From positions 65,969 through 129,968 of the forward strand of contig CAJARJ010000002.1 in NCBI GenBank assembly GCA_903944345.1: a stretch of DNA of 64,000 bases. Reading direction: 5' to 3'. Made by a program: the position numbers and the translations under genes. This stretch comes from Candidatus Omnitrophota bacterium. GTDB lineage: Bacteria; Omnitrophota; Gorgyraeia; Zapsychrales; Fredricksoniimonadaceae. Positions within the stretch are counted from its first letter, which is position 1, and each line of letters begins with the position of its first letter. The notes beneath the pieces are model-generated. The model worked only from the letters and a program-made list of their open reading frames with translations. It searched no databases and was not told the DNA's origin. This document shows, piece by piece, positions 3,115-56,869 of this stretch.

Positions 3115-6100
3115 TCAAATGTCTTTCGTCAACAACGAAAGGGTCATCGCCGGAGCGATCGGCACCGGAACACCGATGTGCGGAATAAACCCGTCGATGG
3201 GTATCTGCTGCAAGTCAGCTTCCGGAAAAGCATCCAATGCTTCACCTGTTTCTTTCAGATCGATACGCCGGCCGTCAAGATCGATACCGCCGGTAGCTTC
3301 CCGATCCTTGTTTATAGCCGTCTTGTCTTGCGGCGGAATCTCGGAAGCATCTGACCCCGCGACAAAAGCTTCTCCGGGCTGCAACGTTGCTGCGGCCACA
3401 GGTTTGGCAAATTCCGGATACACCTCATCATACAAATGCCCTTCACGAATACGGACGTACTCCGCTTCTTCGATCTTGCCTTTCAGGAGCTCTTTCAGAT
3501 AATGCGTTTCTCCCCATGGAGTAGGCGTTGTGTGAACACCCGCCCGGCTCCAGGTCTTGGCAGTCATCCACAGCCGCCCCCCCAGGCTGGAACGCATGGC
3601 GGCCACAGAACCAACCACTTTGGTCGCTGTAAGGATCGAAAAAAGCCCCAGAGAACTTTCTATAATCGCAGTTTCGTCAGGATCCGCTCCCTTCGGAACA
3701 TACACAGGAACATCCACCACGACCGCACTGCCTTTCCATATTCCAAGCCCGAAGAACGCCCCGGTGTTCGGGAAAGACACCTGCCGGACACTCATACGCC
3801 CGCGGTTAAGATCGTGCACCGGAACAAAATTGAGAATAATATCTCCCCGGCCAACATCCGAAGCGTGCCTGGACACAAAGTTATCCAGCGAGTCTCCTTC
3901 GTAAATCGCGGACGGGCTTGTGCCGGAGGTGCCATTGGCCCACAGGCGGGAATAATAATTACGAGTCAGCTCTCCGACGGCCTTCGGGCCGACAATAAAG
4001 ATCTTCCGTGCCCCGGTGCGCCCGAAAGACGACAATCCGGCGATCTTTGAATAGGTTTCGGACAAAAAGAACTTCAACGCGTAATTGATGAAGATAAAAT
4101 CCGCCACCCGGACAACGTAATCCATAAATTGATCCGGATACCAGTTTTGCGGGCCGGCAGAAAACATATAAAGCAGGGTTAAAGGCCCGCCGAAAAGAAA
4201 AACCGCCAAAACAATCAGATCCTTGACCCGGTCAATAACCCAGGGCCGCAGCATGGCCAGGCCGATCTTTTTACCGATCTGCGTCAATTCCTTGTTCACA
4301 TCAGAGGAGAACGAATCCCCCTTCTCATCGGTTCCGGTCATGGCACGCACGGTATCAACTCCACCATCAGCCACCGCCTTTTTGATCTCCTGGAATTTCT
4401 CGGGTGCAAATCGCAGATAAAAACCATCAGTTTCCTGCGCGCCCGCAGACGTCAAGTCCTCGGCTAATTGATAGACCAGACGTTTGGAATGATACATAAG
4501 CTGTATTTCCGATGCGGTTGGCGCCTCCGAAAAGAAATACGTTCCGGTCAGGAAAAACCTCTGATTTTCGGGATCGTCCGCCGGCTTGTCCTTGATCCGC
4601 AGCAAATCCAGAACCATCGCATCCGCACGGGAGGTCATAGCATAAACGTTGCCGACCCCTGCCAGCGCTTTCAATGCCTTGGTGGCCGTTTTTGTCGGAG
4701 ATGTCGCGCCAGACTTGCTGACCACCAGCGCCATGGTGTTTTCGTCCACACGGTAATAGTTCTGGTGCCGTTCAAAAGACTGCACAAACTGGTTGGCCGA
4801 AACAGTCTCGATCTTCAGCCCGTCAACCAGATCATAAAGCAGGTCGAACATCGCCGAGGGGATAATGAAGGAATCATCATAGCCCACCACCAGAAGTCTT
4901 GGCTCTTTGCCGCCGGCTTTAACCTCGCGCAGCTGCCGGGCAAGCCGGCTGGCCGCTTTTCTCAGGTCCGAATCAGCATTGTTCCATCTCTCATTTGCGT
5001 CGGCGACAACGGCTGTGGACATCGACAGCTCCTCGGGAACAATGCGGCTTTCTTTCTTGTACTGGACAGGGGGCGGCGCATGACGCGGATTCTTTTTACC
5101 GTCCACCATCTCCTGTGTAGAATAGAAATCGCCTCTCAGTTCCTCATCCGGGACCGCGAGCCATCCTTTGTTTAAAGGATCGTCTTTCCAGGAACGGATA
5201 TCAAACTTGCCCTCCTGATCATAGGTCAGATTCATCACCTGACCGTCTTGCAGATGAACGATCTCGTCGTACTTCTCTCCGTTTGGCCCGGGGGTCTTCA
5301 GCGTCTGGCTGTCCGATGAGGCGCCGAAAGTCATGTTGGTATGATCCAGCCCTACCGCCACATCCTGCCCGTTATTGAAAACAGTAACACCGTCGGCAAA
5401 TGCCGTGGTCTGTACAAAAATACCATACGTCCCGTCCGCACGCTTGGCAAACTCGCGCACCGCCTGCTCACGGCTTCCGGTAAAATATTTTTTCATGACA
5501 ACCGCTACCCAGAACAAACGCTGCGCCTCGACATCCAGCTTGGAATCCCTCCAGCCCCGCTCCATTCTGGCCAGCACCCTGCCCGCTTCGGAATCCGTAC
5601 CGGACTCCCGGGCCAGTCTTTGGGCCAGACGATCACGGACAGTCAAAAGCATGTCGTACTGCGCTTCCACTCCGGCTTCCGCCGCCTGCTTTCTGGAATC
5701 AAACCACAAGTCACTCAATTCCTTGACTCTCCCGGCAGGCTTGTACCCGGGTCTGGACAAAAGCTGAAGAACTGTTTTCCCGGAACTTACTTTCCGGTCC
5801 ATCTCCTGACGAAACACCTCTCCCAGCGCCTCTTCCTCGCGTTCGGACAAAAGATCTTCCATCGCATTGGACAAGAAGGAGTGGTTCGCAAACACATGTG
5901 CATACCGTACAGCAGTTTTCCAGATCCCCTGGGCCAAAAAAAGATGGATCTGGAAAGGGATGATCGGAGAATCTCCCGGAGGAAGCCCGAAGAGAGCTGA
6001 GTCCAGATGATTAAAGAACGCCTGGGGATATCTATTGAACTGCGCGCGAAAATCGTCATCCACTCCGGCAAACTTTGGCGACACGCGGCCGTTGACAATA

Positions 6101-9100
6101 TATCCGCGCCTGCGAAGTTCCTTAACAATTCTCCTGTAATCGGGGCGAAACCCTCTTTCCAGCACCAAAAGAGGATTAATATCGGCCTTCAGATAAGACG
6201 CCGTAACCTCCCCCTGGAAATAATGATGCAGCAACGCCGGGAAAACCCTGCGCATGGCCGTTGTATCGAGCGTCTGGCCAAACATGCGGGTAACGTTTCC
6301 CCCGCCCATTCTGGCGTTGTCGTTATCTCCATTATGTCCGATCACCACCATCACCTTTCTCCAGATACGCCGTAACACATTATTCTCGTCAAACGCTTCC
6401 ATGACAACCTCTTCCTCGCGGCTGGCATGAGGATGCGTTGCCTTCTTGACCAGAACCCCTCCTGTTGCAAACCGTGTATGATTGAGAATAAAAACCACAA
6501 CCGCACGACCCAGATTGTCTATGGCCTTGGCTTTGGCAGGTATCCCCTTGATGAAGGCCTTGACATTGCGCCCGATCAGATCCGGAGCGAACACCGGACC
6601 GGTTCCTTTCTCCCAACGCAGCCAGCGTTTGGGTTTGAGCATTTTACTGATCCAGGCTTCAGAATTTTCTCCGTCGGAACTATACACCAGTGCCAGCCCG
6701 AGAGCCTGGCCGCCGCGAGCCTCAAGTGTGCGCATCTCACTCTCAAGTTTCGGCATAAGTTCCTGAACCGTTTTGAGAACAACCCCCGGACTATTGTCCT
6801 GCGGAGCAATGCGGCCTCCCCGGACTTCAATGCCGCAACGAACCAGCGCATGACTCAAGGCAGAAGCGTTCACGACCCCCAGAACGGTCATCGCCAGAAG
6901 CGCAGGAATAGCCAGCTGGGTTGCCGCGGCACCTGCGGACAAAACAAGGAAAGTGTGCACGGAGAACCAGCCCAGAGTCAGCAAAGACAACAATCCCCGC
7001 GCCCATAACGGCACGGCATAGGCCGGTTTCGCCTGACGGCTGTTCCCCTCCGGTTTTCCTTCAACCGGAGCGGCCAATATCTCTCCTGTTGCGTCATCCT
7101 GTTCAAGTTCGTGCAGCCCAGACAGAATCTCTGCATTCTCATTGCCCCCCTGCCGGGAGACCGCGGGCCGAGCATCGGCCAAGAGTTCAGCGGCATTCTC
7201 TCTTACGGTAGCCCCCTGACCGGCTGTTGTTGCAGGAGGAACTTCATCACGAAAAACGACCGTTGGATCATCTTTCTCGGGCTCCATTGGAGCTTTTGTT
7301 CCTGTCCTCAAAACTTTCTGCTGTTTTGCGGTACGCTTTTTACCAAAAAGAAATGCTCCGCCCAGAAACAGCAATCCGCCTAACAGAGAATACACCCGGG
7401 GATCCCTCAGGCTGATCTCGGGCCACTCCATCCCGGAAACCCCACCTTTTACTTTATCGATCAGATACTGCCTGAAAGACGTAAACCCGGCCAATTCTTC
7501 GCGGGCAGGCTGTACAAAAGACGGCTCAGCCACAGCTGCGGCGGGAGCCTGCACAGTCGATGAAGCAGGCGGTTGCGTAGTTAGCTCCTTTTGATCCCCC
7601 CCCCGATCTGGAACAGTTACAGGGATCACTGCGGGGGCTTGTTTGACCGGAACAGACAAAGCCGGCAAAGCCCGCAGCACTTCTTCAGGAAGCACCGCAT
7701 TAATTACCAGCGGACGGTACGGAGCAACAGGATCCGCCTGGTCTCCTCCCAAAGTCTTGACCACGCCGCCTTTGCCGTCTTTTCCCCACATGGAGCCGTA
7801 AAATCCCGAATGTTTATACCCTTCGGGATTCAATCTTTTATACGTCGTACGGATCCGTTGAACCGCATGACCGTAGGTCTCCCCGGGCTTTAGTTCGACA
7901 ACTGTTGCCTTTCCGTCGGAAGACGGGGCAAACGCCGCGGCATGCGACATGGCCACAGGCGCCATGGCCAGCGTCACCCCAAGCGCCAGCGAACGAACCA
8001 GTCCGGAAGACAGCATGGCCTGGTCAACCGGCTCAAGCTGCAAAGGCGTACGTAAAAGATCTGAAGACATCGCGCCATCAAGGCCAGTCAAAGGCAATTG
8101 TGTTTCACGGTAAGGCCCAGCTGGCTGATTCAACCCGGAAAGCATCACTCCACCCGAGAAATACTTGCGGGGAATCATCTGCGCATCAACAGGGTCGTTT
8201 TCTTCCTTGATATAGGAATAAACCCCTTCTTCTACCGACCTCAAATACCGTTCAAAAATTTCCTGACGCAATGCCGGAGCAACACTGTCAATGCCGCGCA
8301 CCTTGTTTTGCCCCACATAACGCGTTCCCACTACCGTTGCGGCTTGATGACGTTTGTACCATGTGGCCAACACCAGCGCGTTATAGACCTGCCTTACGGG
8401 AGCAAACAATTCTCCACCATTGACATCCCGGCGTAGAACCGGAAGGATCATCTGACGAAATACATCCGTGTATATCCGGGCCACTCCTTCTTCTTTGGCG
8501 GTCAGCTGCGAATCCTGAAGCAATTGATAGTCGGTATCCGTAAGCACATCTAAAGAGGTATCGGTCACAAAAACGCTGTTATTACGCGTGTAAACAGTTG
8601 CCGTGGATGGAATAATCCACACTTTATTAATATTTCCGGCCGGAATATCTGTTGTTCCATACTCGGCAAACACCCTGCCGTAAACTTCTTTCCAGAAGGC
8701 TGCTCCCAAAGAAGTTTCCGGATAGGTTAAAGAGGCGGCTTTCTGTTTGAGTAAATAATCCTGCTCCATCAACACCTTGCCCATTTCCGTACGAGCAAAT
8801 GTTTCGGGCATAACGCGGTCGCGGCCATCCGGAGAAAGGTTCACCCACATATCCTGGTCGGGAACAGCCAAAGACGCCAGAAGGAACTGACTCAACCGGG
8901 CAATCCCTCCACGCAGATTCTCATTATCGGCCAGCGAAGAGCCTTTATCCACAATCAGATCAAAACGCAACGGATCTGCAGGGTAAACTTTCAACCCCTT
9001 GAGCGTCAACGGATAATAAACCCCCGGGGCCGGTACAGCAGGAAACACAGCCGGCAGACTTCCGACAGACTGTGCCTGCAACAGTTCCGGAAGTATGGCA

Positions 9101-9168
9101 CTCCAGAACACAAAGAACGACACCATACAACAGCACACTCTAAACCATATCGCCCTGCAATCTCTCAT
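3115..9168 (-). CDS. giant (2017 aa) secreted/membrane multidomain protein, paralog-family member 1; hydrophobic leader ending AQS, unassigned conserved N-domain, 3 internal hydrophobic segments, SIS/PGI-like and Ntn-amidotransferase-like motifs, conserved C-terminal tail
   Basis: 6.05-kb uninterrupted ORF. N-domain residues ~35-420 align with ORFs 40793-45073, 45083-49078 and 54725-56869 (WVNLSP, G[RK]xL[LM]xQDYxLKQ, NKVWI[IV]P, PRKYFSGG). Internal VVSKSGATSPTKT (SIS/PGI-like) and VVIGHNGDNDN (HNG-type). C-terminal GGIDLDGRRIDL...DGFIPHIGVPVPIAP tail. Confidence 0.85.
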   Translation of the reverse strand: MRDCRAIWFRVCCCMVSFFVFWSAILPELLQAQSVGSLPAVFPAVPAPGVYYPLTLKGLKVYPADPLRFDLIVDKGSSLADNENLRGGIARLSQFLLASLAVPDQDMWVNLSPDGRDRVMPETFARTEMGKVLMEQDYLLKQKAASLTYPETSLGAAFWKEVYGRVFAEYGTTDIPAGNINKVWIIPSTATVYTRNNSVFVTDTSLDVLTDTDYQLLQDSQLTAKEEGVARIYTDVFRQMILPVLRRDVNGGELFAPVRQVYNALVLATWYKRHQAATVVGTRYVGQNKVRGIDSVAPALRQEIFERYLRSVEEGVYSYIKEENDPVDAQMIPRKYFSGGVMLSGLNQPAGPYRETQLPLTGLDGAMSSDLLRTPLQLEPVDQAMLSSGLVRSLALGVTLAMAPVAMSHAAAFAPSSDGKATVVELKPGETYGHAVQRIRTTYKRLNPEGYKHSGFYGSMWGKDGKGGVVKTLGGDQADPVAPYRPLVINAVLPEEVLRALPALSVPVKQAPAVIPVTVPDRGGDQKELTTQPPASSTVQAPAAAVAEPSFVQPAREELAGFTSFRQYLIDKVKGGVSGMEWPEISLRDPRVYSLLGGLLFLGGAFLFGKKRTAKQQKVLRTGTKAPMEPEKDDPTVVFRDEVPPATTAGQGATVRENAAELLADARPAVSRQGGNENAEILSGLHELEQDDATGEILAAPVEGKPEGNSRQAKPAYAVPLWARGLLSLLTLGWFSVHTFLVLSAGAAATQLAIPALLAMTVLGVVNASALSHALVRCGIEVRGGRIAPQDNSPGVVLKTVQELMPKLESEMRTLEARGGQALGLALVYSSDGENSEAWISKMLKPKRWLRWEKGTGPVFAPDLIGRNVKAFIKGIPAKAKAIDNLGRAVVVFILNHTRFATGGVLVKKATHPHASREEEVVMEAFDENNVLRRIWRKVMVVIGHNGDNDNARMGGGNVTRMFGQTLDTTAMRRVFPALLHHYFQGEVTASYLKADINPLLVLERGFRPDYRRIVKELRRRGYIVNGRVSPKFAGVDDDFRAQFNRYPQAFFNHLDSALFGLPPGDSPIIPFQIHLFLAQGIWKTAVRYAHVFANHSFLSNAMEDLLSEREEEALGEVFRQEMDRKVSSGKTVLQLLSRPGYKPAGRVKELSDLWFDSRKQAAEAGVEAQYDMLLTVRDRLAQRLARESGTDSEAGRVLARMERGWRDSKLDVEAQRLFWVAVVMKKYFTGSREQAVREFAKRADGTYGIFVQTTAFADGVTVFNNGQDVAVGLDHTNMTFGASSDSQTLKTPGPNGEKYDEIVHLQDGQVMNLTYDQEGKFDIRSWKDDPLNKGWLAVPDEELRGDFYSTQEMVDGKKNPRHAPPPVQYKKESRIVPEELSMSTAVVADANERWNNADSDLRKAASRLARQLREVKAGGKEPRLLVVGYDDSFIIPSAMFDLLYDLVDGLKIETVSANQFVQSFERHQNYYRVDENTMALVVSKSGATSPTKTATKALKALAGVGNVYAMTSRADAMVLDLLRIKDKPADDPENQRFFLTGTYFFSEAPTASEIQLMYHSKRLVYQLAEDLTSAGAQETDGFYLRFAPEKFQEIKKAVADGGVDTVRAMTGTDEKGDSFSSDVNKELTQIGKKIGLAMLRPWVIDRVKDLIVLAVFLFGGPLTLLYMFSAGPQNWYPDQFMDYVVRVADFIFINYALKFFLSETYSKIAGLSSFGRTGARKIFIVGPKAVGELTRNYYSRLWANGTSGTSPSAIYEGDSLDNFVSRHASDVGRGDIILNFVPVHDLNRGRMSVRQVSFPNTGAFFGLGIWKGSAVVVDVPVYVPKGADPDETAIIESSLGLFSILTATKVVGSVAAMRSSLGGRLWMTAKTWSRAGVHTTPTPWGETHYLKELLKGKIEEAEYVRIREGHLYDEVYPEFAKPVAAATLQPGEAFVAGSDASEIPPQDKTAINKDREATGGIDLDGRRIDLKETGEALDAFPEADLQQIPIDGFIPHIGVPVPIAPAMTLSLLTKDI

Positions 9169-11084: not shown

Positions 11085-11147
11085 AATAATAACACCGGGG
11101 ACGGAAGGCCCTTTGCTGCCCCCGTCCGTCGCCCGGTGTTCATCCTT

Positions 11148-13055: not shown

Positions 13056-13094
13056 ATCACTACCTCCCCGTTAATAAACGCAATATTTTCCCCG

Positions 13095-13640: not shown

Positions 13641-13666
13641 AATAATCTCTTTCTCCACAAACCGGA

Positions 13667-40792: not shown

Positions 40793-43700
40793 TTAAAGAA
40801 GCTTCAATAACTGCCGGAGGTCCTCAACATAAGTCACACCGGAAATCTCCGGATAAAAACCGCGAAACCCCTGCCCAAGACCTCCCCGCGGGATAGCAAT
40901 ATCCGCAAATTCTGTCGACGAGCCTTCTTGCGGATCCAAAGAAATATTCTTGATATCAATTCCGCCATCAATAACCGTCTTTTGCGGATTGACCGGCATG
41001 GCGGCATCGGCCCTGGCCTCTATCACCTGCTGCAGGAATTCAAACGTGGCCTGGGTTTCAAACCCGATAAGGGTCACATTGTCCGGTTTGCCTTTTGAAC
41101 CCTGCGTATTGACCCCCAGGAACCTGACACTGGAAAGCCGCTCATTCTGCGTCAGTTCAAAGTCATTGCCTGCCAGATACTCTCCGCTCTCTGTTACATA
41201 ACGGTACAACTCATCCGCAAAATAAAAAACAAACCCGGGATTCAGCCGGTTGGTATCTATAAAATCCAGCATGGCCAATGCTTTACCCGCATTGGAACTT
41301 GTCATATCGCTGGAACTTGTGCCCGCAGGCCCCATTTTGTAGTAAAGACCGTCCCGGGCTTCTTCTTCACTCATCGGCAGGGCAACAGCCCGCCGAAGCG
41401 CAGGACGCACATCTGTTGAAACACCATCCCGTCTGAACGGCGGCAAAGGGCGCACCGTCACGCTGGCCGCGGCCCCGCTCGTAATCACATTCGCCTCTCC
41501 CCTCATCTCGATCCACGGAGATGCCAAAGCCTCTCCGGCGGACAAGCGCCGGGACACCTCCTCAGGCGTCAGAATTTCTGCCTGCCAGGAATCATCGGTC
41601 AGCCAGGGAAGAACAATATTGGCATTCGTGGATTCCTTGACAATATAAGCCCGCACCGCTTCCAAATAGGCCTGCCCGTCACCCAGCCAGTCTTTCAGGT
41701 TCTGCGGCGACAAGGCCGCGCGCAAAGCCTCCCCGGCAGGCGGCAAGGAAAAAGCATGTGCGATGTTATACGCGTCATCCAGACGAGCCTCTCCTTCCCC
41801 GGAAAAACCTACTTTTGTAGCGCCGCCATCGACGTAAAGGATCAATTTCTGCAAAGCCTGCGGGTGATCCCGCATCTCTTCTCTGATCGCCTGATAAATT
41901 CTTTTTATCTGCTCCTTTCGGGAGTTTCCCGATATAATAGCCACCCGTACGTCCATCCGTAAAAGCAGCATGAACAAATGGGCCAGTTGCCTGTACTCCG
42001 CCAACCCGCCCGAGCCTTTTGGCAAAATCGTCTTGTCGACATCAAACACAAAAGCTCCGGATTCCTTGATCTGAGTCCAGTTGGATACAATATAACGAAT
42101 AATTTTTTCTACCGAGCTCTTCCCATGAAAAAGTCCAAGTTCGCTTTCTTTGCCCCGCACGTCCTCGGAAAAGATCAGTCCGGTTGTTGAAGAAAGGGCA
42201 AAGCCGGCCTGCTGCAGCCCCCGCAGAGTCAAAACCGAATCAATCAGCGCCGTGAACGAGGCCGTTGAACCAAGGCTTGATCCATCGGAAGAACGAACGT
42301 TCAACGCCCGCACACGATGTCCGGCTTGCGCTTCCATCTGTTTGAGTTTCTGAGGAAGCCCCTGAACATCAACATCTTCCTGCACGCCAGCCAGCACATA
42401 ATCCACCAAAGATCCCCGAATTGGCAGCGCTTCGGGTTGCATTTGCGAATACGTAGAAACTTTCTTGAGCGCCTCCGGCAATCGCTCAACCGCTTCCGGA
42501 GAAAGATCCTCTGACACAAGAACCTTGAGGGCCTTCTGGGCTTTGGCTATAGCCTGAGCGCCTCCCGGAACAACCAAAACTCCGCCCACATCGGTTTCAA
42601 TATTACCCGAATAAAACAGAATATCCGCCGAGGAAAGAATATTTTCAACTCTTTCTTCCAGGGGCTTTTTCATGGCTGAGGATGAAAGATACACGGAAAA
42701 ATCATTCAGCCGGTCTGCGGGAAGCCTGCGGGTTGTTTCCTCGATTTCCTGACGAGTGTCCTCGGGAAGAGTTTCTTCCTTGTATTCCATGAGAGCTACA
42801 TCATTAATATTATCTTTCCGAAGCGTTTTGTGCAACAAGGGATCAACCAGCCATAAGCCCAGCATTTCCTCTTTCCTGCTGAAATAATTGAGTGCGGTCT
42901 GGGACGTTAACAGGAGTCCCGTTTTTGTTAACCCCACCATAAACCCTCTGTCCCGAACAGGAAAAACCACTTCGTGCCCTTCCCGCACATCCAGCAAGCC
43001 CGCCAAGGCATCAACCGCGCCCTGCCAGTCATCTTTTTTCCCTTCCAGAACACCTTTTTGTACCATCCCCAATAAAAGAATGGTTCGGATGGGAACATCG
43101 TTCAAAGAAAACTCCCTGTTCCCTCCGGAAGTTCGGGGCAAATCTTTCCAGGTTCTGAGGAAAGCATCAAGATATCCGGCAATCTGCTTTCTCTTGTCAA
43201 GATCCATGGAAAGCGCCAGATTAAAAAGTTTTTTGATATCCGGGTGAAGGTCGCTTCCTTTGCTTGGATCAAACAGACTCTGAACGAGCTTATAAAATTC
43301 ATCCTCGAGAACATTCGGAGACAATGCTTCCGAAAACCGGGCATCGCAAAAGTCGGCCACATAACTGTCCCTGGCCAGATCCACAAGAGCACGCCCCGCC
43401 GCTGTAATCCCCGTGGCGTTAAAAACCCTGGCTCCATAAAACCAGCTGAGCCCGTCTCCGGTCCCACTGGCAATAACTTTAATATTAACATTGGGGCGAG
43501 CCTTGAGTTTTCGCGTCAGCGAACGCTGGCCTCCCTGATGAAAGAAAACGACATTAAGGGGTTTTCCCTCGGAGGCCATCGAATCAATCATGGCCTCCTG
43601 ATCAAAGAAAGAATTGAAAAGCTGTACTGCTTTCTGACTCTCGATCCCGCCCAGCACCGGCTTCTTCGGAGTGCCCTGGCGGACATTCTGTTCGGCATGC

Positions 43701-45073
43701 AGTCGCCACAAAAGAATACGATAAATATCTTCCGCGCGCTTGAGGATCGTCCGGTCCTGGATACTTTGCACCAGCAATGCCGGATGCCCGATGAAAGATC
43801 CGAGATCCTGGCCTTCCACTTTGGCGTGAATACCCAAATTGCTCAATTCATCAACGAGCCGCGCAATGCGTGCATTACGCACGGAAACAAGACGCGCTTC
43901 CTCATCCCTTTCATAAGAAGATGGCTGTGCCGCATCCGCCGGAGGGGCTGTCATTTCCATCCGGACAAGGCTGGCCTGCCCCAAAGACCGCACGGCGGCA
44001 GCGGAATCCGTCTCAACAAGCCGGATATCGCCCAAACGCTCTCCGCCGGAGAAATACCGGCGTGCGACTACGGCGGTGTCAGGCAAAGCGTCCTCCCGGA
44101 TATAATCAAAAACGCCTTGCCGGAAAGCTTCCATATAGCGGGCATAAAGGGCTTCTTTCCATTCCTGCTCGTCGCTCAAAACACCCGACACAAGGCGGCG
44201 ATCCATGTATGTCCCGCCCAGAAACGATCCGCGGATCTGCCCGCGATACCATTTGGCCAGAATAGCGGCATAATAGATCTGGCGCATGGGCGCAAACGCG
44301 GCCCCCTCGTTGATTTCGCGTTCCAGACGAGGAAGGATGACTTTTCGCAGAGCAGACCGGGCGGCCTCACTGCTGCCGGGATTCTGCCCGGACAAAACCT
44401 GATCCTCATCCATCATAACCCGAAGAGTGGCTTGTGTGATATAAACGGCATGTCCTTTGACAAATATCTGCGCTTCCTGCGGCATGATCCAGATCTTGCT
44501 GAAAATATCCACCGGGATATCGGCTCCCGCGGCATTCTCCCTTATCCCGGCATACACCCCGGACCAGAACTCCCGCCCCAAAGCGGTTTCCGGATAGATC
44601 AACGAAGCGGACAGCTGTTTGAGAATATAATCCTGCGCCAGCATGTCGCGGCCAAGAACCGTCCGCCCAAGATCTTCATCAATCATGCGGTCTTTTTCGT
44701 AAGGAGAAAGATTGACCCAAAGCTGATCTTCCGGAACCGTGACCGCGGCCAGAAAATACTGCGCCATGCGTTGTGTTTCGCTGCGGATAAAAGCCTCGTC
44801 CGACTTGTCCTGGCCGGAATCCATAATAAAGTCAAGTGTAAACGGACTCTCGGGGTGGATCACCAGTCCACGGGGAAGAATCGGCGTTCTTGCCCCGGAT
44901 AAATTGATCCGTTCCCCCGGTCGGGGAAGCCCGGAAACAAAAAAGCTTTGAGCGTGTCCCGTTGTTGCGGACACACTCAAAGCCAGAGACAAGGTCACCG
45001 ATAAAATACGACGAACCCGAACGGAGTTAATCAGCGCCGGCATAATCCCTGTCTCCTTGAAAAAACACGGCAA
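40793..45073 (-). CDS. giant (1426 aa) secreted multidomain protein, paralog-family member 2; HAD-like DxDxT module near the C-terminal third
   Basis: Signal peptide ...GHAQS, the conserved N-domain, internal VFDVDKTILP...AIISGNS...YVDGG (HAD-like motifs I/II/IV), and C-terminal GGIDIKNISL...RGFYPEISGVTYVED tail. Confidence 0.85.
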   Translation of the reverse strand: MPCFFKETGIMPALINSVRVRRILSVTLSLALSVSATTGHAQSFFVSGLPRPGERINLSGARTPILPRGLVIHPESPFTLDFIMDSGQDKSDEAFIRSETQRMAQYFLAAVTVPEDQLWVNLSPYEKDRMIDEDLGRTVLGRDMLAQDYILKQLSASLIYPETALGREFWSGVYAGIRENAAGADIPVDIFSKIWIMPQEAQIFVKGHAVYITQATLRVMMDEDQVLSGQNPGSSEAARSALRKVILPRLEREINEGAAFAPMRQIYYAAILAKWYRGQIRGSFLGGTYMDRRLVSGVLSDEQEWKEALYARYMEAFRQGVFDYIREDALPDTAVVARRYFSGGERLGDIRLVETDSAAAVRSLGQASLVRMEMTAPPADAAQPSSYERDEEARLVSVRNARIARLVDELSNLGIHAKVEGQDLGSFIGHPALLVQSIQDRTILKRAEDIYRILLWRLHAEQNVRQGTPKKPVLGGIESQKAVQLFNSFFDQEAMIDSMASEGKPLNVVFFHQGGQRSLTRKLKARPNVNIKVIASGTGDGLSWFYGARVFNATGITAAGRALVDLARDSYVADFCDARFSEALSPNVLEDEFYKLVQSLFDPSKGSDLHPDIKKLFNLALSMDLDKRKQIAGYLDAFLRTWKDLPRTSGGNREFSLNDVPIRTILLLGMVQKGVLEGKKDDWQGAVDALAGLLDVREGHEVVFPVRDRGFMVGLTKTGLLLTSQTALNYFSRKEEMLGLWLVDPLLHKTLRKDNINDVALMEYKEETLPEDTRQEIEETTRRLPADRLNDFSVYLSSSAMKKPLEERVENILSSADILFYSGNIETDVGGVLVVPGGAQAIAKAQKALKVLVSEDLSPEAVERLPEALKKVSTYSQMQPEALPIRGSLVDYVLAGVQEDVDVQGLPQKLKQMEAQAGHRVRALNVRSSDGSSLGSTASFTALIDSVLTLRGLQQAGFALSSTTGLIFSEDVRGKESELGLFHGKSSVEKIIRYIVSNWTQIKESGAFVFDVDKTILPKGSGGLAEYRQLAHLFMLLLRMDVRVAIISGNSRKEQIKRIYQAIREEMRDHPQALQKLILYVDGGATKVGFSGEGEARLDDAYNIAHAFSLPPAGEALRAALSPQNLKDWLGDGQAYLEAVRAYIVKESTNANIVLPWLTDDSWQAEILTPEEVSRRLSAGEALASPWIEMRGEANVITSGAAASVTVRPLPPFRRDGVSTDVRPALRRAVALPMSEEEARDGLYYKMGPAGTSSSDMTSSNAGKALAMLDFIDTNRLNPGFVFYFADELYRYVTESGEYLAGNDFELTQNERLSSVRFLGVNTQGSKGKPDNVTLIGFETQATFEFLQQVIEARADAAMPVNPQKTVIDGGIDIKNISLDPQEGSSTEFADIAIPRGGLGQGFRGFYPEISGVTYVEDLRQLLKLL

Positions 45074-45082: not shown

Positions 45083-48000
45083 TCAGCGTGAAGGAACAAT
45101 CCCCAGCAAGCCGGCCAACCCCGTCATGGGAGTAATCCTGATAATCGTCCCCCTCAATCCGCGAGACTGCTCAACGAGAGTTTCCAACGACTGGCCACCC
45201 AAAACATCCGCGCTCCATTCTCCGCTGCGCTCGACATCCAAAGCGCGGGCATCGATACCACCAGTTCGCTCAACCGCTTGGGAAGCGTCCAGTGCCGCGA
45301 CCAAATCACCCAAAAAAGCTTTCAGGTTTTCACTGCGCTGATAGAGTGTCACAGGAGCTTTCTGCCAGGCCTCAAGCCAGGCATCAAGGGCGCTTCTTGA
45401 CTCGCTGAATTGATCAGCAGGGAAAAAGGCCCTCAAATAATCCGGAAAATACGGCATCATGCCGTCGAGTGAATTAAAACCATGTCTCCTTTGAACATCT
45501 ACAATCGTCTTATAGAAACCTTCCAGCCCGGGCCGGGATTCTTCGGAGAACATAAACCCGTTAAACTGGAAAAGTCCAACGCCATCGGGATTCTCTGTCC
45601 GGACTTTCGTCCGTACCGTCTGGTCAGGCAAGCCCACGGCAATAGCTTGGACGGCCAATATTTTTTCGCGCGCCTCATCTTTCTTCTTTTTCAGGACGTC
45701 CTGGGCCCGGTACAACATCGCCGCCGCTGTAATGGCTCCCGTCTGGGTCTTGTTCAACAACCGGCCCAAAGCCGCCCCGCGAAAAAATCGATCCCGCTCC
45801 AGATCCCAGACGTTCTTCATCTCTCTGAATTTCTGTTCCCAGGAAGACGGATCCTGATAGCTCAACATCAACAGGTTCCCGACCGAATTAGCCTCCCCCG
45901 GGTTCCATGGTTTCATATTATCCGTTGTGCCGCCATCCCGATGATCAAATGCAATCTGGATCGCCATGTTGGGCTGAGGGTTTTCCTCCAGCACTTCATG
46001 CGCCCCCAATGTTCTCTTGTTAAGAATAATATATCCGTTCACCATTCCCAGAAGCGCAATTTTCTGCTCCTCGGTAAAATGCTGTACAAAGAAAAACTGT
46101 CCGGGATAACGGTTTTCGCCTCTGGCCTTGGCCTCTCTGCGTTCACGATTAATCTTGAACTCTATATCCCGGTATTTGCGAGCCAGCTCACGACTGGGAT
46201 CTGTATCCTGAAGATTTCCCTGGATCACAACTGAATACCCCATATCCACCAGCATCGGAATCAGCCAATAGGGGTCGAATGCATTCTTTTCATCCACCAG
46301 CCGGCGGGCGTTCCCCAAAATAGGGTTATCCGTGTTCACATCCACATACAAAGCCGCACGAACCTGATCCGTGGCTGTAAAGCCGGCATTCAGAGTCTCA
46401 TTGGCCCATTTAAGAATGACCGCAAGCTCCATATTGTTGAGTGCTTCAACAGATCTTCCGTACTGCTCTCTGGCCCTGGCCTCAAGCAGTTCTCCGTTAG
46501 CTGTTCTGACCTTCATCTGATTGTAGCCTTGCGCGGTTCTTTTCTTGAGACGCGCAACATCTGTGGGAGACAAATAATCGATATCCGCAGTTGCTGCGAT
46601 CTCTCCTTCCTGTTGAATGCGACTAAACGTCTGTTCAAGAAACGCCGCTATCTGTTTAGGATTGTCTCCATTGGTCGCCGCCGTCAAAGGAAGCCCATAA
46701 AGAGTACTCATGTGCGCAGCATGACTCCGGCTGACACCCAGTCCGGCATCGGCCAGCCTCAGCCCTCCCCAGGTAAGATTCCCAAACAGGCTGGAACCCG
46801 CTGCAGGCCCTCCCTGCTCCGGATCCCACCATCTGTCAATGTAAGCCGCTCCGGAAAACTGCGCCGGAAGGTGCATCAAATTTTCTGCCAGATGTCTGGC
46901 CTGTTCCAAAGGCAGTGTCTGGGCGTTAAGAATGGTATGCGTCGAGTCCAGGATCACCACATTGTCCCGGGACAAGCCCGGCAACTCATGCCCTCTGATG
47001 GCCTGCACAAGAGGTGCCGCCTGTCCATCCTGGGTATGTACTATAATTAAAGGGTAACTTCCGTCAGCCTTCCGGTCCCTGATCTGCTGACGAGACAAAA
47101 ACGCCTCGGAGGCCAACGCAAAAAACGCGACCGACTCTTCCATAGTGACGGGATTATTCGGCGCTTCAGCAGATTTATACATATATAATCTGTTGGAGAA
47201 CTTGTTCCATTCGTCACGGATATAATATCCTGTGACCCCGGCCCGGTTTTCACCTTCCTCAACAATGACCGGAACCCGCTCGGATCCCACTTCAATATCA
47301 AATCTGTCAACTTCATGCAAATTCTTCACTCCGAGATTCCTTCTTCCCGAACCGTCATCATCATAATATAGCGGTTCTCCCCCGGGAACTCCGGTATCAA
47401 ATCGCATGGCGTACTTAAGCTGAATCGACCGAACCCTGGCTCCCAGCCGTGTCAGAAACATGGAATGCGTCTCATTAACAGGGCCCAATCCTCCTTGTTT
47501 ATAATCCATCTCAACTGTAGCGAAATAATACGTTATATCGTTCAGAAGAGGCATGCTTTCTTTGACAAACGCATCTGTATACCGACCCGTCATCAACAGC
47601 ATCATATTCATGAGTCTCGTCCTGTCTTTTGCAGGAACCGACTCGATCGCATCCATCAACCCGTTGAGCTGCTCTTGCGGCAATAGCGCCACAGCCTTGG
47701 TGACAGCCCACATCCCCTGAACAGGATTCCCCCGGATAACCTCAACATCGTACTGAAGAGAATACCGTGTCATCAGTTTTTTGAACTCTTCCTTGAATCT
47801 GCGTACTGAGAGCCTTGCCAAGCCCTGAAACTCGACTAAAATTTTCTCAAACCGTCCGATTGCGTTCCACTGCTCTGTTGTTTCCGGAACAAACTGCGCC
47901 CTGACAGCTTCGTCAATAATCTGGGAACCGTCCACCGCTTCAAGGCTGGCCGCGATCCTTTGTAAAGGACGTTCTGCAAAAGCCTCGACTTCCTGTGCCT

Positions 48001-49078
48001 GGGCCGCGTCCTGGCGAATATCCCCAACCGCAAACCCGCCGGAGAAATACTTCCTCGGGAAATCCTCACCGGTGACAGGATCGGTTTCTTCCTTTATATA
48101 GTTAAAAACACCTGTCCGGTAAGCCGCCATATACTGCTCGTAGATCAGTTCCTTGTTCTTCGGATCACTTAAATCGATCCCGGCAACCTTGCTCTTTCCG
48201 GAATAAACTTTGTTAAGAACGCTATCCTTGAGCGCCTTCTGGTACCACTGCGCCAGAACCAGCGCATAAACAACCTGACGCAGGCGGGCAAAATTGGCCC
48301 CTTCATTCACTTCCTGTTCAATGGCCGGAACGATCAGCTCGCGTAAAATATTCTTGGTCAGTTCTTCTTCGGGAGTACCTGTTGCAACGGCATTCTCCTG
48401 CTGGGCCTGATGGTCCGCATCCAGCATGACCTTCATTTCCGCTCCGGTTATAAAAACAGTATTACCTTTCTCGAACACCCGGGCCCGCTGAGGCACAATC
48501 CAGACTTTATTGAACGCATCAACCGGAAGATCCGTCACACCAAATTTTTCCCAGGCCTGTGCATATATTTTTTGCCAGAAATCATGCCCGAGATTCTCTT
48601 CAGGATAAATCAGAGAAGCCGTCAGCTGTTTCAGAACATAATCCTGTGCCAACAAATCCCGGCCCAACTCTGTCCGAATCAATGCTTCGGGAACAATCCG
48701 GTCTGATTCGACCGGCGAAAGGTTGACCCACAGATCCTGTTGCGGAACAGTAAGCGCAGCAAGAAAGTAGTTAATCATACGCTGGGAGTCATCACGCAAC
48801 TCCGCTTCACTTACAAGCAAAGAACCGGGGTCAACAATAAAATCAAGATCAAGCGGACGGGAGGGATCAATTGTAATTCCGCGCAACAAAACAGGTTCGA
48901 TCGCTGCTGAAAAACGCACCATCTGTCCCGGTGCAGGCAGCACCTCTCCGGTTACCAGAGCCTGGGCGTAACCAAGAGCAGGCTCACAACAAAGAATAAC
49001 CGCTAATAGAAATGCCAGAAAACGCCGCATGAAATGTCCTCCCGGTTTTGGATGGTTACGAAGAACGTGATTAAACAA
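45083..49078 (-). CDS. giant (1331 aa) secreted multidomain protein, paralog-family member 3; possible GT-B glycosyltransferase/glucan-phosphorylase-like module
   Basis: Signal peptide ...GYAQA and the conserved N-domain. Internal DYKQGGLGPVNETHSMFL and GGTTDNMKPWNPGEANSVGNL weakly recall GT-B/GT35 motifs. C-terminal GGIDARALDV...RGLRGTIIRITPMTG tail. Sits 9 nt upstream of member 2. Confidence 0.85.
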   Translation of the reverse strand: MFNHVLRNHPKPGGHFMRRFLAFLLAVILCCEPALGYAQALVTGEVLPAPGQMVRFSAAIEPVLLRGITIDPSRPLDLDFIVDPGSLLVSEAELRDDSQRMINYFLAALTVPQQDLWVNLSPVESDRIVPEALIRTELGRDLLAQDYVLKQLTASLIYPEENLGHDFWQKIYAQAWEKFGVTDLPVDAFNKVWIVPQRARVFEKGNTVFITGAEMKVMLDADHQAQQENAVATGTPEEELTKNILRELIVPAIEQEVNEGANFARLRQVVYALVLAQWYQKALKDSVLNKVYSGKSKVAGIDLSDPKNKELIYEQYMAAYRTGVFNYIKEETDPVTGEDFPRKYFSGGFAVGDIRQDAAQAQEVEAFAERPLQRIAASLEAVDGSQIIDEAVRAQFVPETTEQWNAIGRFEKILVEFQGLARLSVRRFKEEFKKLMTRYSLQYDVEVIRGNPVQGMWAVTKAVALLPQEQLNGLMDAIESVPAKDRTRLMNMMLLMTGRYTDAFVKESMPLLNDITYYFATVEMDYKQGGLGPVNETHSMFLTRLGARVRSIQLKYAMRFDTGVPGGEPLYYDDDGSGRRNLGVKNLHEVDRFDIEVGSERVPVIVEEGENRAGVTGYYIRDEWNKFSNRLYMYKSAEAPNNPVTMEESVAFFALASEAFLSRQQIRDRKADGSYPLIIVHTQDGQAAPLVQAIRGHELPGLSRDNVVILDSTHTILNAQTLPLEQARHLAENLMHLPAQFSGAAYIDRWWDPEQGGPAAGSSLFGNLTWGGLRLADAGLGVSRSHAAHMSTLYGLPLTAATNGDNPKQIAAFLEQTFSRIQQEGEIAATADIDYLSPTDVARLKKRTAQGYNQMKVRTANGELLEARAREQYGRSVEALNNMELAVILKWANETLNAGFTATDQVRAALYVDVNTDNPILGNARRLVDEKNAFDPYWLIPMLVDMGYSVVIQGNLQDTDPSRELARKYRDIEFKINRERREAKARGENRYPGQFFFVQHFTEEQKIALLGMVNGYIILNKRTLGAHEVLEENPQPNMAIQIAFDHRDGGTTDNMKPWNPGEANSVGNLLMLSYQDPSSWEQKFREMKNVWDLERDRFFRGAALGRLLNKTQTGAITAAAMLYRAQDVLKKKKDEAREKILAVQAIAVGLPDQTVRTKVRTENPDGVGLFQFNGFMFSEESRPGLEGFYKTIVDVQRRHGFNSLDGMMPYFPDYLRAFFPADQFSESRSALDAWLEAWQKAPVTLYQRSENLKAFLGDLVAALDASQAVERTGGIDARALDVERSGEWSADVLGGQSLETLVEQSRGLRGTIIRITPMTGLAGLLGIVPSR

Positions 49079-54724: not shown

Positions 54725-56869
54725 TTATATTGATATCCCGGCAACCGGACGAATGGACAAAATGGTGGGCACAAAGCCGTCCACCTGCAGGCTTTCCAGA
54801 TCCTGTTGCGCCACCGGCAAAGGAACCCCCTTGCCGTCCCGGCGAATCTGCATGTCCCAGTTGGCAGAATTCAGATCAATACCACCAACGGCATCCTTGT
54901 TCTGCAAAGACGCAGCCTCGCTAACAGCCTGCCCCGCATCAATATTGGAGCGAGCCTGAACTGCAGTCAAAACCGCTCTGATATCCGAAGCGTCAAACCG
55001 AAACTCAGATAACTGCAAGCCGCGCCCGAACTGATCATCCGTAAGAACTCTATCTATATCCAAACCCGGGTCAAAATAAGCAACCCGATCATTGCTCTGG
55101 TCTGGCAACAATAGACCATGTCCAAGCAAGGCATCAAATATGTCCGGAGCCCTGTCCTTGAAGACCGCAACAAAATCCGCGGGGGTCACACGCACTTCAA
55201 AATCCGGTCTCTGCCTTTCAGCCCAGACGCGGGCCAAGGCTCTTAAAACATAGTTGACAACATTAACCTCATTGGCCGGATTCACCCGCGAACTCTGCTG
55301 CATCAAGATTGTCAGCAGACGCCTGATCGATGGCAGTTGCTTGACTTCATTCCAAAGACGCTCCAGCTGATTGATATCCTTAACATCGTCTGGATTCATC
55401 CTCACTTGCTTTGCCGAAAAGTCAAATGCCGGCAGCAACCGTCGCCACTCTTTGGTCATGATGGAAACGGACACATTAAAAGCCTCTATGTCTATAGGAC
55501 TTCTCTCGCCATCGGCTTGCGCGCTGCCTTCTTGCAATATCTGCTCTATCTCGGGAACATCTACCTCGTCTCGCCCCAGAATATCCGAAGCATCCAACCC
55601 AAGACTTTCCAACAATAGCGGCAAAACATACGACACCGGAGCCCCGTTCTGAGCGGCATCGGCGATATCGCCCATTCTCTTTGGTTCCAGAAGTGCTGCA
55701 GCAGAATCAAAAGCCGCGTCTTCCAGTTGCCGCGCGGCATCACGGGCCGCCAACGGCAAAGCGGCATAATCAGAAACAATTTGTAATTGGGCTGGATCCT
55801 GTCCGCGCGCCAACCCGCCGGAAAAATATTTACGGGGGATAAGTTCCTGCGAATACTGATCCACATCCTCCCGGATCATGTTAAAAACCCCCTTGCGAAA
55901 AGCCTCCATATATTGTTCCCAAATCATGCGATTGGCCGAACATTCTGCGCCCTTGCCGGAACAGTCAGACTGGTCAATCCCTGCCACCCGGGACTGATCG
56001 GCATAGACCCGCCCCAGAATAGATTCCTTGAGCGCCCGCTTGTACCAGGTGGCCAGAACCATAGCTGTACAAATCTGGCGCAGAACAGTAAAACTTTTTC
56101 CCTGGTTAACCTCGCGCTCTATTTCCGGAACAATAACATCCCGTAAAACTTCGGACGACAAACGGACAAACTCCTCGTCATCACCCACCGGACTGTTGAG
56201 CACGGGCGCGGCCTGTCCAGCCTGGCTCTTGTAGGCCAGATAATCTCTTTCGGTCATAACCCGCAGGCGCTGGGTCAGAAGATAGGCTGTTGTTCCTTTT
56301 TCGTAGACAACAGCCGTGTCCGGAATAATCCAGACCTTGTTAAAACTTTCCAGCGGCACATCCGCAGAACCAAATTTCTCATGCGCCCGGCGATAGAACT
56401 CACTCCAGTACTTTTTCCCCAGCTCGGTATCGGGATGCGTCAAGGAGGCCGCCAACTGTTTAAGCAGATAGTCCTGAGCCAGAAGGTCTCGCCCCATAGC
56501 TGTCAAACCAAACTGATCATCAACCAGCCGATCCCCCTCATAGGGCGAAAGGTTAACCCACTGATCGGTATCAGGAATAGTCAACGCCGTCAGGAAATAT
56601 TTGACCAACCGGGTATATTCTTCCTGTTTCTGATCCGGCGTCAGGGCTGCGTCTCCCTTACGAATAAGAAAATCAAATTTCAGGGCATTCATCGGATCAA
56701 TGGTTACGCCCTGCAAATAGGCCGGAGTGAAAGCCTCCGATGGGGGCAGCAGTGTTCCGGGTTCAGGCATAAGCTGCATAACAGATTGTGCCTGCGCCAG
56801 ACCGGTCGGCGGACGCACACAGCTCCAGCCAAATATAACCAATAAAAATATCGCAGTGACTCTTTTCAT
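54725..56869 (-). CDS. secreted protein (714 aa), minimal member 4 of the giant-protein paralog family (N-domain plus C-terminal tail, short middle)
   Basis: Signal peptide ...GLAQAQS and the conserved N-domain (WVNLSPYEGDR, GRDLLAQDYLLKQL, NKVWIIP, PRKYFSGG). C-terminal GGIDLNSANW...DGFVPTILSIRPVAG tail. Confidence 0.85.
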   Translation of the reverse strand: MKRVTAIFLLVIFGWSCVRPPTGLAQAQSVMQLMPEPGTLLPPSEAFTPAYLQGVTIDPMNALKFDFLIRKGDAALTPDQKQEEYTRLVKYFLTALTIPDTDQWVNLSPYEGDRLVDDQFGLTAMGRDLLAQDYLLKQLAASLTHPDTELGKKYWSEFYRRAHEKFGSADVPLESFNKVWIIPDTAVVYEKGTTAYLLTQRLRVMTERDYLAYKSQAGQAAPVLNSPVGDDEEFVRLSSEVLRDVIVPEIEREVNQGKSFTVLRQICTAMVLATWYKRALKESILGRVYADQSRVAGIDQSDCSGKGAECSANRMIWEQYMEAFRKGVFNMIREDVDQYSQELIPRKYFSGGLARGQDPAQLQIVSDYAALPLAARDAARQLEDAAFDSAAALLEPKRMGDIADAAQNGAPVSYVLPLLLESLGLDASDILGRDEVDVPEIEQILQEGSAQADGERSPIDIEAFNVSVSIMTKEWRRLLPAFDFSAKQVRMNPDDVKDINQLERLWNEVKQLPSIRRLLTILMQQSSRVNPANEVNVVNYVLRALARVWAERQRPDFEVRVTPADFVAVFKDRAPDIFDALLGHGLLLPDQSNDRVAYFDPGLDIDRVLTDDQFGRGLQLSEFRFDASDIRAVLTAVQARSNIDAGQAVSEAASLQNKDAVGGIDLNSANWDMQIRRDGKGVPLPVAQQDLESLQVDGFVPTILSIRPVAGISI

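Follow-up and report, generated by a model that had tools for sequence, protein, structure and literature searches.

What do the large, related genes in this stretch of Omnitrophota DNA encode? The 64-kb stretch analysed (throughout, the window) contains 77 open reading frames (ORFs) of at least 150 aa, and nearly all plausible genes lie on the minus strand. Among them are ORFs A (3115-9168), B (40793-45073), C (45083-49078) and D (54725-56869), all on the minus strand, just where a preliminary description of this DNA had placed them; together they take up 16.4 kb, or 25.6% of the window, in agreement with the roughly 16 kb estimated there. The four share a common plan, consisting of a predicted cleavable Sec leader, an N-terminal (N) domain, a middle that is unrelated between members (below, the cargo) and a C-terminal tail. 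Public annotation calls these proteins 'hypothetical protein'.

The paralogy proposed earlier on the basis of the N domain holds. In pairwise BLASTP comparisons the N regions are 35-45% identical over 315-389 residues (E 1.7e-61 to 6e-99); the best match between any two middles reaches only E 0.016. A four-way alignment of the N-terminal ~350 residues, with 33-40% identity to A, has 76 invariant columns and normal complexity, and contains the motif blocks WVNLSP, QDY.LKQ, NKVWI.P, E.EVNEG, WY[KR] and PRKYFSGG; the similarity is thus not compositional, nor did it lead to any known family (see below). The last ~65 residues have the motifs GGID and G[FL]xPxI in common, with weak pairwise similarity. 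That they form a conserved tail, as had been suggested, was confirmed with a profile hidden Markov model (HMM): in a six-frame scan of the window, the tail HMM matched A-D exclusively, at 50-82 bits (runner-up 5 bits), and the N-domain HMM likewise, at 588-627 bits (runner-up 2 bits).

B and C probably start further downstream than their ORFs suggest: public gene calls from the same organism give 1416 aa for B, which puts its start at the ATG at 45043, and 1315 aa for C, with the ATG at 49030. B, C and D are present in a collection of 15 billion proteins; A with its start at 9168 is absent from it and may therefore be called differently elsewhere. The leader of A is atypical (Cys-rich, with Leu at -3), and its real start or processing may differ. 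With these starts, the four proteins divide as follows (↓, predicted cleavage site).

9073..9168, minus strand: A, predicted signal peptide, residues 1-32 (...ELLQA↓QS); n-h-c organisation; A↓Q aligns with the family cleavage site; holds 4 of the 5 Cys of A.
8149..9072, minus strand: A, N domain, residues 33-340, ending PRKYFSGG; HMM 604 bits; BLASTP to B, C and D E 1e-61 to 1e-77; no Pfam or NCBIfam match.
3325..8148, minus strand: A, cargo, residues 341-1948; one Cys in ~1,600 residues; ortholog at locus L001 of another Omnitrophota metagenome-assembled genome (MAG).
3118..3324, minus strand: A, tail, residues 1949-2017, GGID at 1960; tail HMM 51 bits and alignments.
44951..45043, minus strand: B, predicted signal peptide, residues 1-31 from the ATG at 45043 (...TGHA↓QS); public 1416-aa gene call and family cleavage-site statistics.
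44042..44950, minus strand: B, N domain, residues 32-334; HMM 588 bits; BLASTP E 3e-91 to C.
41000..44041, minus strand: B, cargo, residues 335-1348; weak CofD/YvcK-like region; no hydrophobic or transmembrane (TM) segment; one Cys in 1416 aa.
40796..40999, minus strand: B, tail, residues 1349-1416, GGID at 1360; tail HMM 56.6 bits.
48965..49030, minus strand: C, predicted signal peptide, residues 1-22 from the ATG at 49030 (...LGYA↓QA); public 1315-aa gene call; contains both Cys of C.
48035..48964, minus strand: C, N domain, residues 23-332; HMM 627 bits; BLASTP E 6e-99 to D.
45293..48034, minus strand: C, cargo, residues 333-1246; similar to glycogen/starch synthases of family GT5; no TM segment; no Cys.
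45086..45292, minus strand: C, tail, residues 1247-1315, GGID at 1257; tail HMM 50 bits.
56789..56869, minus strand: D, predicted signal peptide, residues 1-27 (...GLAQA↓QS); A27/Q28 are the nearly invariant A↓Q columns of a 73-sequence alignment; AlphaFold helix 2-18, then a low-confidence linker.
55814..56788, minus strand: D, N domain, residues 28-352; HMM 619 bits; confident AlphaFold model; no structural neighbour.
54917..55813, minus strand: D, cargo, residues 353-651; no recognisable domain; Pfam empty up to E=1.
54728..54916, minus strand: D, tail, residues 652-714, GGID at 662; tail HMM 82.5 bits.

Two details of the earlier description need correction. The N domain, put there at ~380 aa, is shorter: after a signal peptide of 22-32 aa, the mature domain comprises ~305-325 aa up to YFSGG. 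The leaders do contain the AQ[AS] motif in which they had been said to end; the cut, however, would fall between A and Q, so that the Q belongs to the mature protein.

The N domain stands without known relatives, as first described. Pfam-A 2025 and NCBIfam r20 returned nothing on the N domain or tail of A-D, none of 120 listed homologues carries a precomputed Pfam domain on its N region, a 73-sequence N-domain profile found no match among PDB sequences, and PDB sequence searches with whole A, B and C gave nothing useful. AlphaFold2 modelled residues 1-400 of D with a mean pLDDT (predicted local distance difference test) of 83 and a pTM (predicted template modelling score) of 0.82, predicting a mixed alpha/beta fold in which three beta-hairpins (51-70, 179-206 and 330-349) pack with long helices. 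Foldseek comparison of the D N-domain model with the PDB yielded no structural neighbour (best E 0.44, template modelling score ~0.1). The N domain is thus apparently an alpha/beta domain of new fold, as far as the model can tell. Its conservation is high: across the family the median identity is ~54%, far above that of tail or cargo, and in D numbering ~30 positions are invariant and ~60 nearly so, with many polar residues among them (N106, E111, R114, R127, D133, K137, E251/E253/N255, R264/Q265 and R346/K347/Y348). Such a pattern, several positions of which are kept even in the Streptomyces homologues described below, could indicate that the conserved domain is itself an enzyme or chaperone, acting in maturation, folding or modification of the cargo or of an envelope substrate, rather than a passive handle. 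We consider this quite unlikely: the domain resembles no catalytic fold, tens of copies per genome on different cargos would be unusual for an enzyme, and ligand binding explains the conserved polar residues equally well.

How widespread is this architecture? A search with the N-domain profile gave at least 756 matches (best E 1e-144), and among those listed with an organism name all are from Candidatus Omnitrophota/Omnitrophica except one labelled Pacearchaeota; C-terminal fusions among the listed matches include ankyrin, NUDIX and receiver domains. In species-representative genomes (one per species), at least 577 loci encode relatives, with up to six loci per MAG; the best 80 of these at least 577 loci are from Omnitrophota MAGs, save placeholder labels, one Elulimicrobium and one 'Bacteroidales' bin. 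Searched on its own against 1.84 billion clusters (50% identity), the tail profile matches at least 5,762 representatives (E <=1e-3), in every case at the very end of the protein. Within 1.3 Mb of related loci we counted 101 domain-bearing ORFs, 22 of them in flanks, which corresponds very roughly to one per 45-60 kb, a density that tandem copies will have inflated. On taxonomic spread, the profile search therefore places the family almost entirely in Omnitrophota: A-D belong to a very large unnamed family of modular proteins, predicted to be Sec-exported, that is characteristic of this phylum.

Two observations on these relatives are recorded separately. Five IMG/VR contigs classed as viral (L083-L087) encode N-domain relatives, three close (38-40% identity) and two distant (27-28%), the latter low in GC and starting 'AQVAGALDISGH'; one distant relative has C-terminal TM segments. 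Moreover, in several MAGs family genes are broken by one or two in-frame stops or a poly-G frameshift, beyond which the tail-bearing portion reads on in frame. The interruptions, which could be pseudogenisation, assembly error or recoding, lie in the following loci of relatives (strand not given).

L010:6833-6837, interrupted family gene.
L045:18754-18758, interrupted family gene.
L056:7762-7772, interrupted family gene.
L069:11768-11781, interrupted family gene.
L036:~11233-11290, interrupted family gene.

Domain and tail travel together. Among tail-matching proteins of at least 450 aa, 54 of 65 have the N domain, and the other 11 look N-terminally truncated. In the 1.3 Mb of loci, all seven internal tail-only ORFs directly follow an N-only ORF, the break being a run of Ns, a poly-G frameshift or in-frame stops, and most domain-only ORFs are either cut short by the locus end or finish in degenerate tails (GGIN, GGVD). 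The complete members gathered for comparison number 117, with cargos from 4 to 2,907 aa; at locus ends, several family ORFs exceed 3,700 aa. In this set, domain identity and tail identity correlate (Spearman 0.63, a value reached by 0 of 500 permutations), and any high-scoring cargo alignment was found in just 19 of 6,786 pairs. Where domains are 60-80% identical (1,233 pairs), the shared part never exceeds half of the cargo, and even pairs with 82-91% identical domains, one of them within a single MAG (L043 and L077), have cargos that differ in length and sequence. The same holds for D: its tail is 40-60% identical to those of P0014, P0030, P0055, P0071 and P0104, and its cargo shows no similarity even to homologues with a D-type N domain and tail. 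The unrelated middles and the carrier-plus-cargo design suggested earlier are borne out by these figures, which point to exchange of cargo between members.

The smallest arrangement is that of P0077 (438 aa), a minimal member made of domain and tail, with 14 residues from YFSGG to GGID. Its model is confident (pTM 0.83), and the tail, though mostly coil, has a pLDDT of 78-93, which suggests that the tail packs on the domain. Six further apparent minimal members in the loci were rejected as spurious short matches of the tail HMM inside the N domain, leaving P0077 as the only genuine one in these data.

Outside Omnitrophota, a tblastn search of plasmids with the D domain found six Streptomyces megaplasmids (E down to 3e-27). 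In WP_121549542.1 of S. fungicidicus the core domain scores 158 bits against the family HMM (E 2e-50), and the equivalent of YFSGG runs directly, with no cargo between, into 'YIYGGVDLSRLQLQ', a GG[IV]DL motif resembling the start of the tail; a second GGID-hairpin motif lies ahead of the core. Two further Streptomyces proteins have a like plan, so that the homologues read as signal peptide, variable N-terminal region, GGID hairpin, core, G/S/P linker and, at the C terminus, a TM anchor followed by clustered arginines. Given the signal peptide and the arginine-bearing TM anchor, the domain would therefore sit just outside the membrane. Polar and aromatic positions kept in both phyla are WVNL.P.E.DR, GR..L.AD..LK, WI.P, E..VN.G, LR..Y and WY. 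For the N-terminal regions of two of these homologues a PDB sequence search gave nothing useful; read by eye only, such regions seem to contain deaminase-like (HxE...CxxC) or nuclease-like motifs. The megaplasmid homologues are at:

L088:6726-9047, Streptomyces homologue, annotated hypothetical.
L089:2606-5092, Streptomyces homologue, annotated hypothetical.
L090:3591-6119, Streptomyces homologue, annotated hypothetical.

Because co-occurrence, co-variation, the P0077 model and the Streptomyces motifs combine in its favour, the best reading is a split domain, in which domain and tail are probably two pieces of one fold parted by cargo insertion. The same data can be arranged differently. If the tail docked in the domain of the next molecule, in the manner of donor-strand exchange, the proteins would assemble head-to-tail into a chain of enzymes serving as an extracellular or periplasmic matrix or coat. 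Both termini being conserved and co-varying around a free middle would fit such a chain, and GGID hairpins flank the core ('PGGIDFTTLELRY...' ahead of it and 'YGGVDLSRLQL' after it in Streptomyces; the IMG/VR start 'AGALDISGH'), so the tail could mimic an element of the domain itself; a cultured relative has been described as a 'coated coccus' (PMC10066038). We nevertheless hold head-to-tail assembly to be unlikely, given that the AlphaFold monomer of P0077 is confident with the tail in cis, that its 14-residue linker may suffice for cis docking, and that no sign of oligomers was seen.

Are these proteins exported? We aligned 176 family members at the A↓Q site. Position -1 is A, -3 is A/G/V/S in 90%, -2 is Y/F in 57%, and Pro recurs at -4 to -6; in 87% the n-region carries a net positive charge, the h-region has ~14-15 residues, and the h- and c-regions together have a median of 21. 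With a positive n-region, an h-region, small residues at -3/-1 and a helix breaker, the leader agrees with signal-peptidase-I cleavage across the family; A itself, with its Leu at -3, is atypical. The distribution of cysteine changes at this very site. Cys makes up 2.25% of the 25 residues before A↓Q, 0.02% of the mature domain, 0.06% of the tail and 0.06-0.09% of the cargo, as compared to 1.03% in the 439 non-family ORFs that lie near them in the same genomes (Mann-Whitney p 8e-47 versus cargo). Zero-Cys sequences account for 62% of cargos and 7% of neighbouring ORFs, and mature family proteins are depleted ~10-50-fold overall. In the window, mature C has no Cys in ~1,290 residues, and B and A have one each after the leader. 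The exported proteins of the window look alike in this respect, mature GspD (~505 aa) and GspG being Cys-free and LptE having only its lipobox Cys, and its cytoplasmic proteins contain 1.16% Cys. This pattern is indirect evidence, the strongest there is for export, and suggests that the mature part behaves as extracytoplasmic; together with the canonical signal-peptidase-I site it supports the secretion assumed in the preliminary description, and leader cleavage is likewise predicted. An even number of TM segments between domain and tail would put the two on one side of the membrane. Most cargos lack a TM-like segment: a crude Kyte-Doolittle count gives none in 73-84%, with many single 'TM' calls among the rest, a count that does not separate buried helices from true TM segments.

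Which proteins are carried? In the window, all matches are weak, with C appearing GT5-like, B weakly CofD/HAD-like and A remotely GlmS-like. The C cargo matches Pfam Glyco_transf_5 at E 9.6e-5 and 22.6 bits, against a cutoff of 22.7; no homologue of it was found outside the family, all three matches carrying the family N domain or tail, and its sole distant homologue, P0271 (30% identity), is itself a member and has PF08323. In B, a CofD match (Pfam, E 1.2e-3) is under the cutoff, and a putative HAD-like DxDxT motif (FVFDVDKT) was read by eye. Residues 894-922 of A are a remote GlmS-like stretch (NCBIfam GlmS models, weak local E 4e-7, far under cutoff), and a Kyte-Doolittle profile of this cargo gives TM-like hydrophobic segments at ~592-610, 725-743, 748-766 and 1651-1669.

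Elsewhere in the family, at most 7 of 47 complete members from protein searches have a cargo that Pfam recognises, with Response_reg, LMWPc and cNMP_binding among the models. A set of 47 cargos taken from the loci gives matches to 42 Pfam families, including HEAT, Response_reg, Radical_SAM with B12-binding, UDPGP, methyltransferases, PEP-utilizers/PPDK_N, acyl-CoA dehydrogenase, ABC1, PP2C, Maf and GT2. Full-length glycolytic enzymes occur as well, namely PGI (E 1.5e-189) and PGK (E 1.2e-107). The PGI cargo is 54-57% identical to stand-alone PGIs from other phyla and appears, from its residues, to keep the signature motifs. A 2,991-aa member of the Ca. Zapsychrus exili MAG JAVCCJ010000022.1 (L019:9983-18955) carries GAPDH twice, PGK, enolase and a class-II aldolase-like domain, which by homology is lower glycolysis in one signal-peptide-bearing chain. 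Its cargo of 2,556 aa contains three Cys, two of which are the GAPDH catalytic ones; in these GAPDH domains the catalytic Cys alone is kept, and the second Cys of the usual SCTTNC is Ala. Zero Cys in the PGI domain alone is not telling, as 9 of 120 stand-alone PGIs also have none; the argument therefore rests on whole cargos and on the leader/mature boundary. Largely, then, the identifiable cargo seems to consist of cytoplasmic-type enzymes and signalling domains without non-essential cysteines, which suggests that Omnitrophota place enzymes of cytoplasmic type outside the cytoplasm.

Could the proteins instead stay inside, as a membrane-tethered metabolon whose uncleaved N-terminal anchor and domain-tail unit organise enzymes on the inner face of the cytoplasmic membrane? 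Cargos such as PGI, PGK and GAPDHx2-PGK-enolase-aldolase make most sense in the cytoplasm, and one member lies between pfk and fba genes. Several features disfavour a cytoplasmic location, however, and render it highly improbable: the positive n-region and neutral c-region predict an N-in/C-out orientation, the h-region has merely ~14-15 residues before Pro and A-x-A, Cys frequency falls ~100-fold at the predicted cleavage site, as in exported and not cytoplasmic proteins of the genome, and in Streptomyces the signal peptide and C-terminal anchor put the domain outside.

If exported, the enzymes might go further. Domain and tail could together be what marks the proteins for crossing the outer membrane, for instance through a type II secretion system (T2SS), so that the enzymes are released or delivered to host or prey, where ATP, NAD+ and sugar phosphates would be available inside the cell. 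A Sec leader followed by a folded conserved module suits two-step secretion, cysteine exclusion also suits the crossing of a second barrier, the cargo includes typical effector domains (ankyrin, NUDIX, LMW phosphatase, kinase-like, PP2C), and the window itself holds a complete GspD/E/F/G-pseudopilin cluster at 20.7-31 kb. Omnitrophota are presumed to be epibionts or predators, with T2SS and type IV pilus loci near giant genes (West-Roberts 2023 preprint; PMC10066038), and such a presumed lifestyle would agree with effectors. Yet just 1 of 79 related loci has homologues of the window's T2SS proteins, the secretin included, at a distance of up to 10 kb; Streptomyces, where homologues of the domain occur, has neither an outer membrane nor a T2SS, and the domain is membrane-anchored there; and no match to a known T2SS, type IX (T9SS), two-partner (TPS) or type I (T1SS) secretion signal was found. 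We regard an effector arsenal, the main rival of the reading that follows, as possible, if doubtful.

We lean, tentatively, towards a different function for the domain-tail unit: retention or targeting at a conserved envelope component, in preference to a signal for an outer-membrane machine. A handle common to tens of unrelated cargos per genome would therefore be a shared address, and retention at the envelope is favoured because homologues occur in a monoderm, are membrane-tethered there and have polar positions conserved across phyla. The proposed sequence of events would be as follows. A classical signal peptide would be cut at A-x-A↓Q, leaving a mature protein that begins with the ~305-325-residue alpha/beta domain and closes with the ~65-residue tail. 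Domain and tail would form one folding unit, into which the cargo is inserted at the junction between YFSGG and GGID; the tail would fold back onto the domain, looping out a cargo of 0 to >2,900 residues. As a common handle, the composite unit would assign tens of different cargos per genome to one destination outside the cytoplasm; most likely it would hold them at a conserved part of the envelope, periplasmic or on the surface, and not pass them through an outer-membrane machine. Cargo would be freely exchanged, and would mostly consist of cytoplasmic-type enzymes and signalling domains purged of non-essential cysteines, like the exported proteins of these organisms.

Several points weigh against this proposal. 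Export, cleavage and location are all read from sequence, and docking of the tail on the domain is deduced from pLDDT/pTM, co-variation and the Streptomyces motif, which is short and weak, with domain scores of 5.7 and -0.5 bits against the tail HMM. The analysis turned up neither a ligand nor a partner gene nor a conserved gene neighbourhood, the neighbours being unrelated housekeeping genes, and with a type II secretion cluster in the same window, release from the cell is possible. A has several TM-like segments and may be cytoplasmic in part, yet is Cys-poor throughout. Finally, PGI, PGK, GAPDH, enolase, radical-SAM, kinase and receiver cargos need ATP, NAD+, S-adenosylmethionine (SAM) or Fe-S assembly, none of which is expected in the periplasm.

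A bolder interpretation goes further. Omnitrophota may possess an extracytoplasmic metabolic compartment, or else a new effector-delivery system by which to exploit metabolites of a host, in which Cys-free enzymes of central metabolism and signalling are mounted on a split anchoring or sorting domain. PGI, PGK, GAPDH, enolase, aldolase-like enzymes, dikinases, CoA-ester enzymes, kinases and phosphatases would then be a set working in the periplasm or at host contact, and the domain would be a new protein-sorting principle with a simpler form in Streptomyces. We judge this possible but on the doubtful side.

The remaining genes of the window include a complete type II secretion-like cluster on the minus strand between A and B/C (20697-31443), with several unannotated ORFs. 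Its AT skew is unusually high over 20-26 kb (0.22-0.24). The cluster comprises:

29366-30964, minus strand: GspD secretin.
27651-29330, minus strand: GspE ATPase with MshEN.
26397-27641, minus strand: GspF.
25948-26625, minus strand: GspG.
24458-25135, minus strand: pseudopilin.
21575-22123, minus strand: PilO-like protein.
20697-21503, minus strand: SPOR/TPR protein.

At 9954-17963, a heat-shock super-cluster on one strand consists of hrcA, grpE, dnaK, dnaJ, clpB and two hsp20 genes. Directly downstream of secA, at 32176-35280, lies an ABC-2 type transporter operon encoding an ABC_tran ATPase, an ABC2 membrane protein and an ABC_transp_aux/DUF4350 accessory protein, gliding-motility-like. A low-GC segment (41-43% versus ~52%) from 57549 to 63516 and beyond is inserted in the comEC (Competence) gene; in L081, which comes from a different assembly of this organism, the element is absent and the 252-aa ComEC fragment directly upstream of D is intact. 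GC skew is negative throughout 1-64000 (cumulative -4.75) with no turning point, and the window therefore lies within one replichore. The genes of the low-GC segment are:

57549-59312: large serine recombinase.
Within the segment: 768-aa ORF of unknown function.
62743-63516: Replic_Relax protein.

If correct, our reading gives a name to the protein family that has expanded most in an entire uncultivated phylum, offers a way to predict which Omnitrophota proteins leave the cytoplasm, and accounts for part of their 'dark' N termini. It also poses a testable paradox: intact glycolytic enzymes that look exported, and with them the question of how enzymes that depend on ATP, NAD or SAM would function beyond the cytoplasm. 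The N domain is a candidate new fold, whose homologues in Streptomyces open the question to experiment in an organism that can be grown, and the cysteine boundary is a simple general check of export predictions in genomes.

How does the family compare with known systems? From the same phylum come the Omnitrophota giants, described as 'multi-enzyme' polypeptides bearing signal peptides and/or TM segments (West-Roberts et al. 2023, bioRxiv 10.1101/2023.11.21.568195; 10.64898/2026.06.07.730766; Seymour et al. 2023, PMC10066038). These accounts report cytoplasmic-type domains, a further likeness (radical SAM, receiver, HEAT, PPDK_N, NUDIX, HAD and sugar-metabolism), and N-terminal regions without identifiable domains. 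The giants have, by these accounts, at least 10,000 aa (ORFs >20 kb); A-D, in contrast, have 714-2,017 aa, the longest complete members carry cargos of ~2,900 aa, and most members of the family are soluble. Keyword look-ups in the giant-protein literature returned no conserved N domain, C-terminal tail, cysteine purge or Streptomyces relatives, and full-text literature searches gave no description of domain or tail.

Among secretion systems, autotransporters have a barrel of ~250-300 aa; the C-terminal element here has ~65 aa, with no Autotransporter Pfam match. Nor do the proteins look like T1SS/RTX substrates, having a Sec leader, a single GGID, no repeats and no RTX Pfam match. MARTX toxins likewise combine conserved ends with a cassette-like variable centre; their ends, however, are long glycine-rich repeats, they leave by a T1SS without a Sec leader, and there is no homology. 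T2SS substrates, which have a Sec or Tat leader and fold in the periplasm, are not known to share a sequence signature. T9SS cargo is similar in that a Sec leader and a conserved C-terminal element occur on many unrelated cargos per genome; it differs in that the family tail (~65 aa) is obligatorily coupled to a large N domain, the lineage is not Bacteroidota and homologues exist in a monoderm. Por_Secre_tail/TIGR04183 gave no match in A-D or in 17 isolated tails, and matched 1 of 47 other members somewhere along its chain (E 1.8e-6). TPS exoproteins and polymorphic toxins, also large, have a conserved N module of ~250-330 aa after the leader and a variable, recombining remainder; here, by contrast, the predicted fold is mixed alpha/beta and not a beta-helix, A-D have no Pfam match to the TPS domain Haemagg_act, a tail closes the protein, and the cargo is metabolic or signalling and not toxin/immunity pairs. 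A leader joined to a conserved sorting or anchoring module and variable cargo is, then, a known design (T9SS, TPS, SLH-type), and the features that define those systems are absent from this family. Of all these, cell-wall-anchoring modules (SLH, LysM, SPOR, choline-binding) provide the functional model that we favour, a leader and a non-catalytic module directing proteins to one envelope address; the Omnitrophota module differs from them in sequence and fold, is split by its cargo, and carries cytoplasmic-type rather than wall- or polymer-degrading enzymes.

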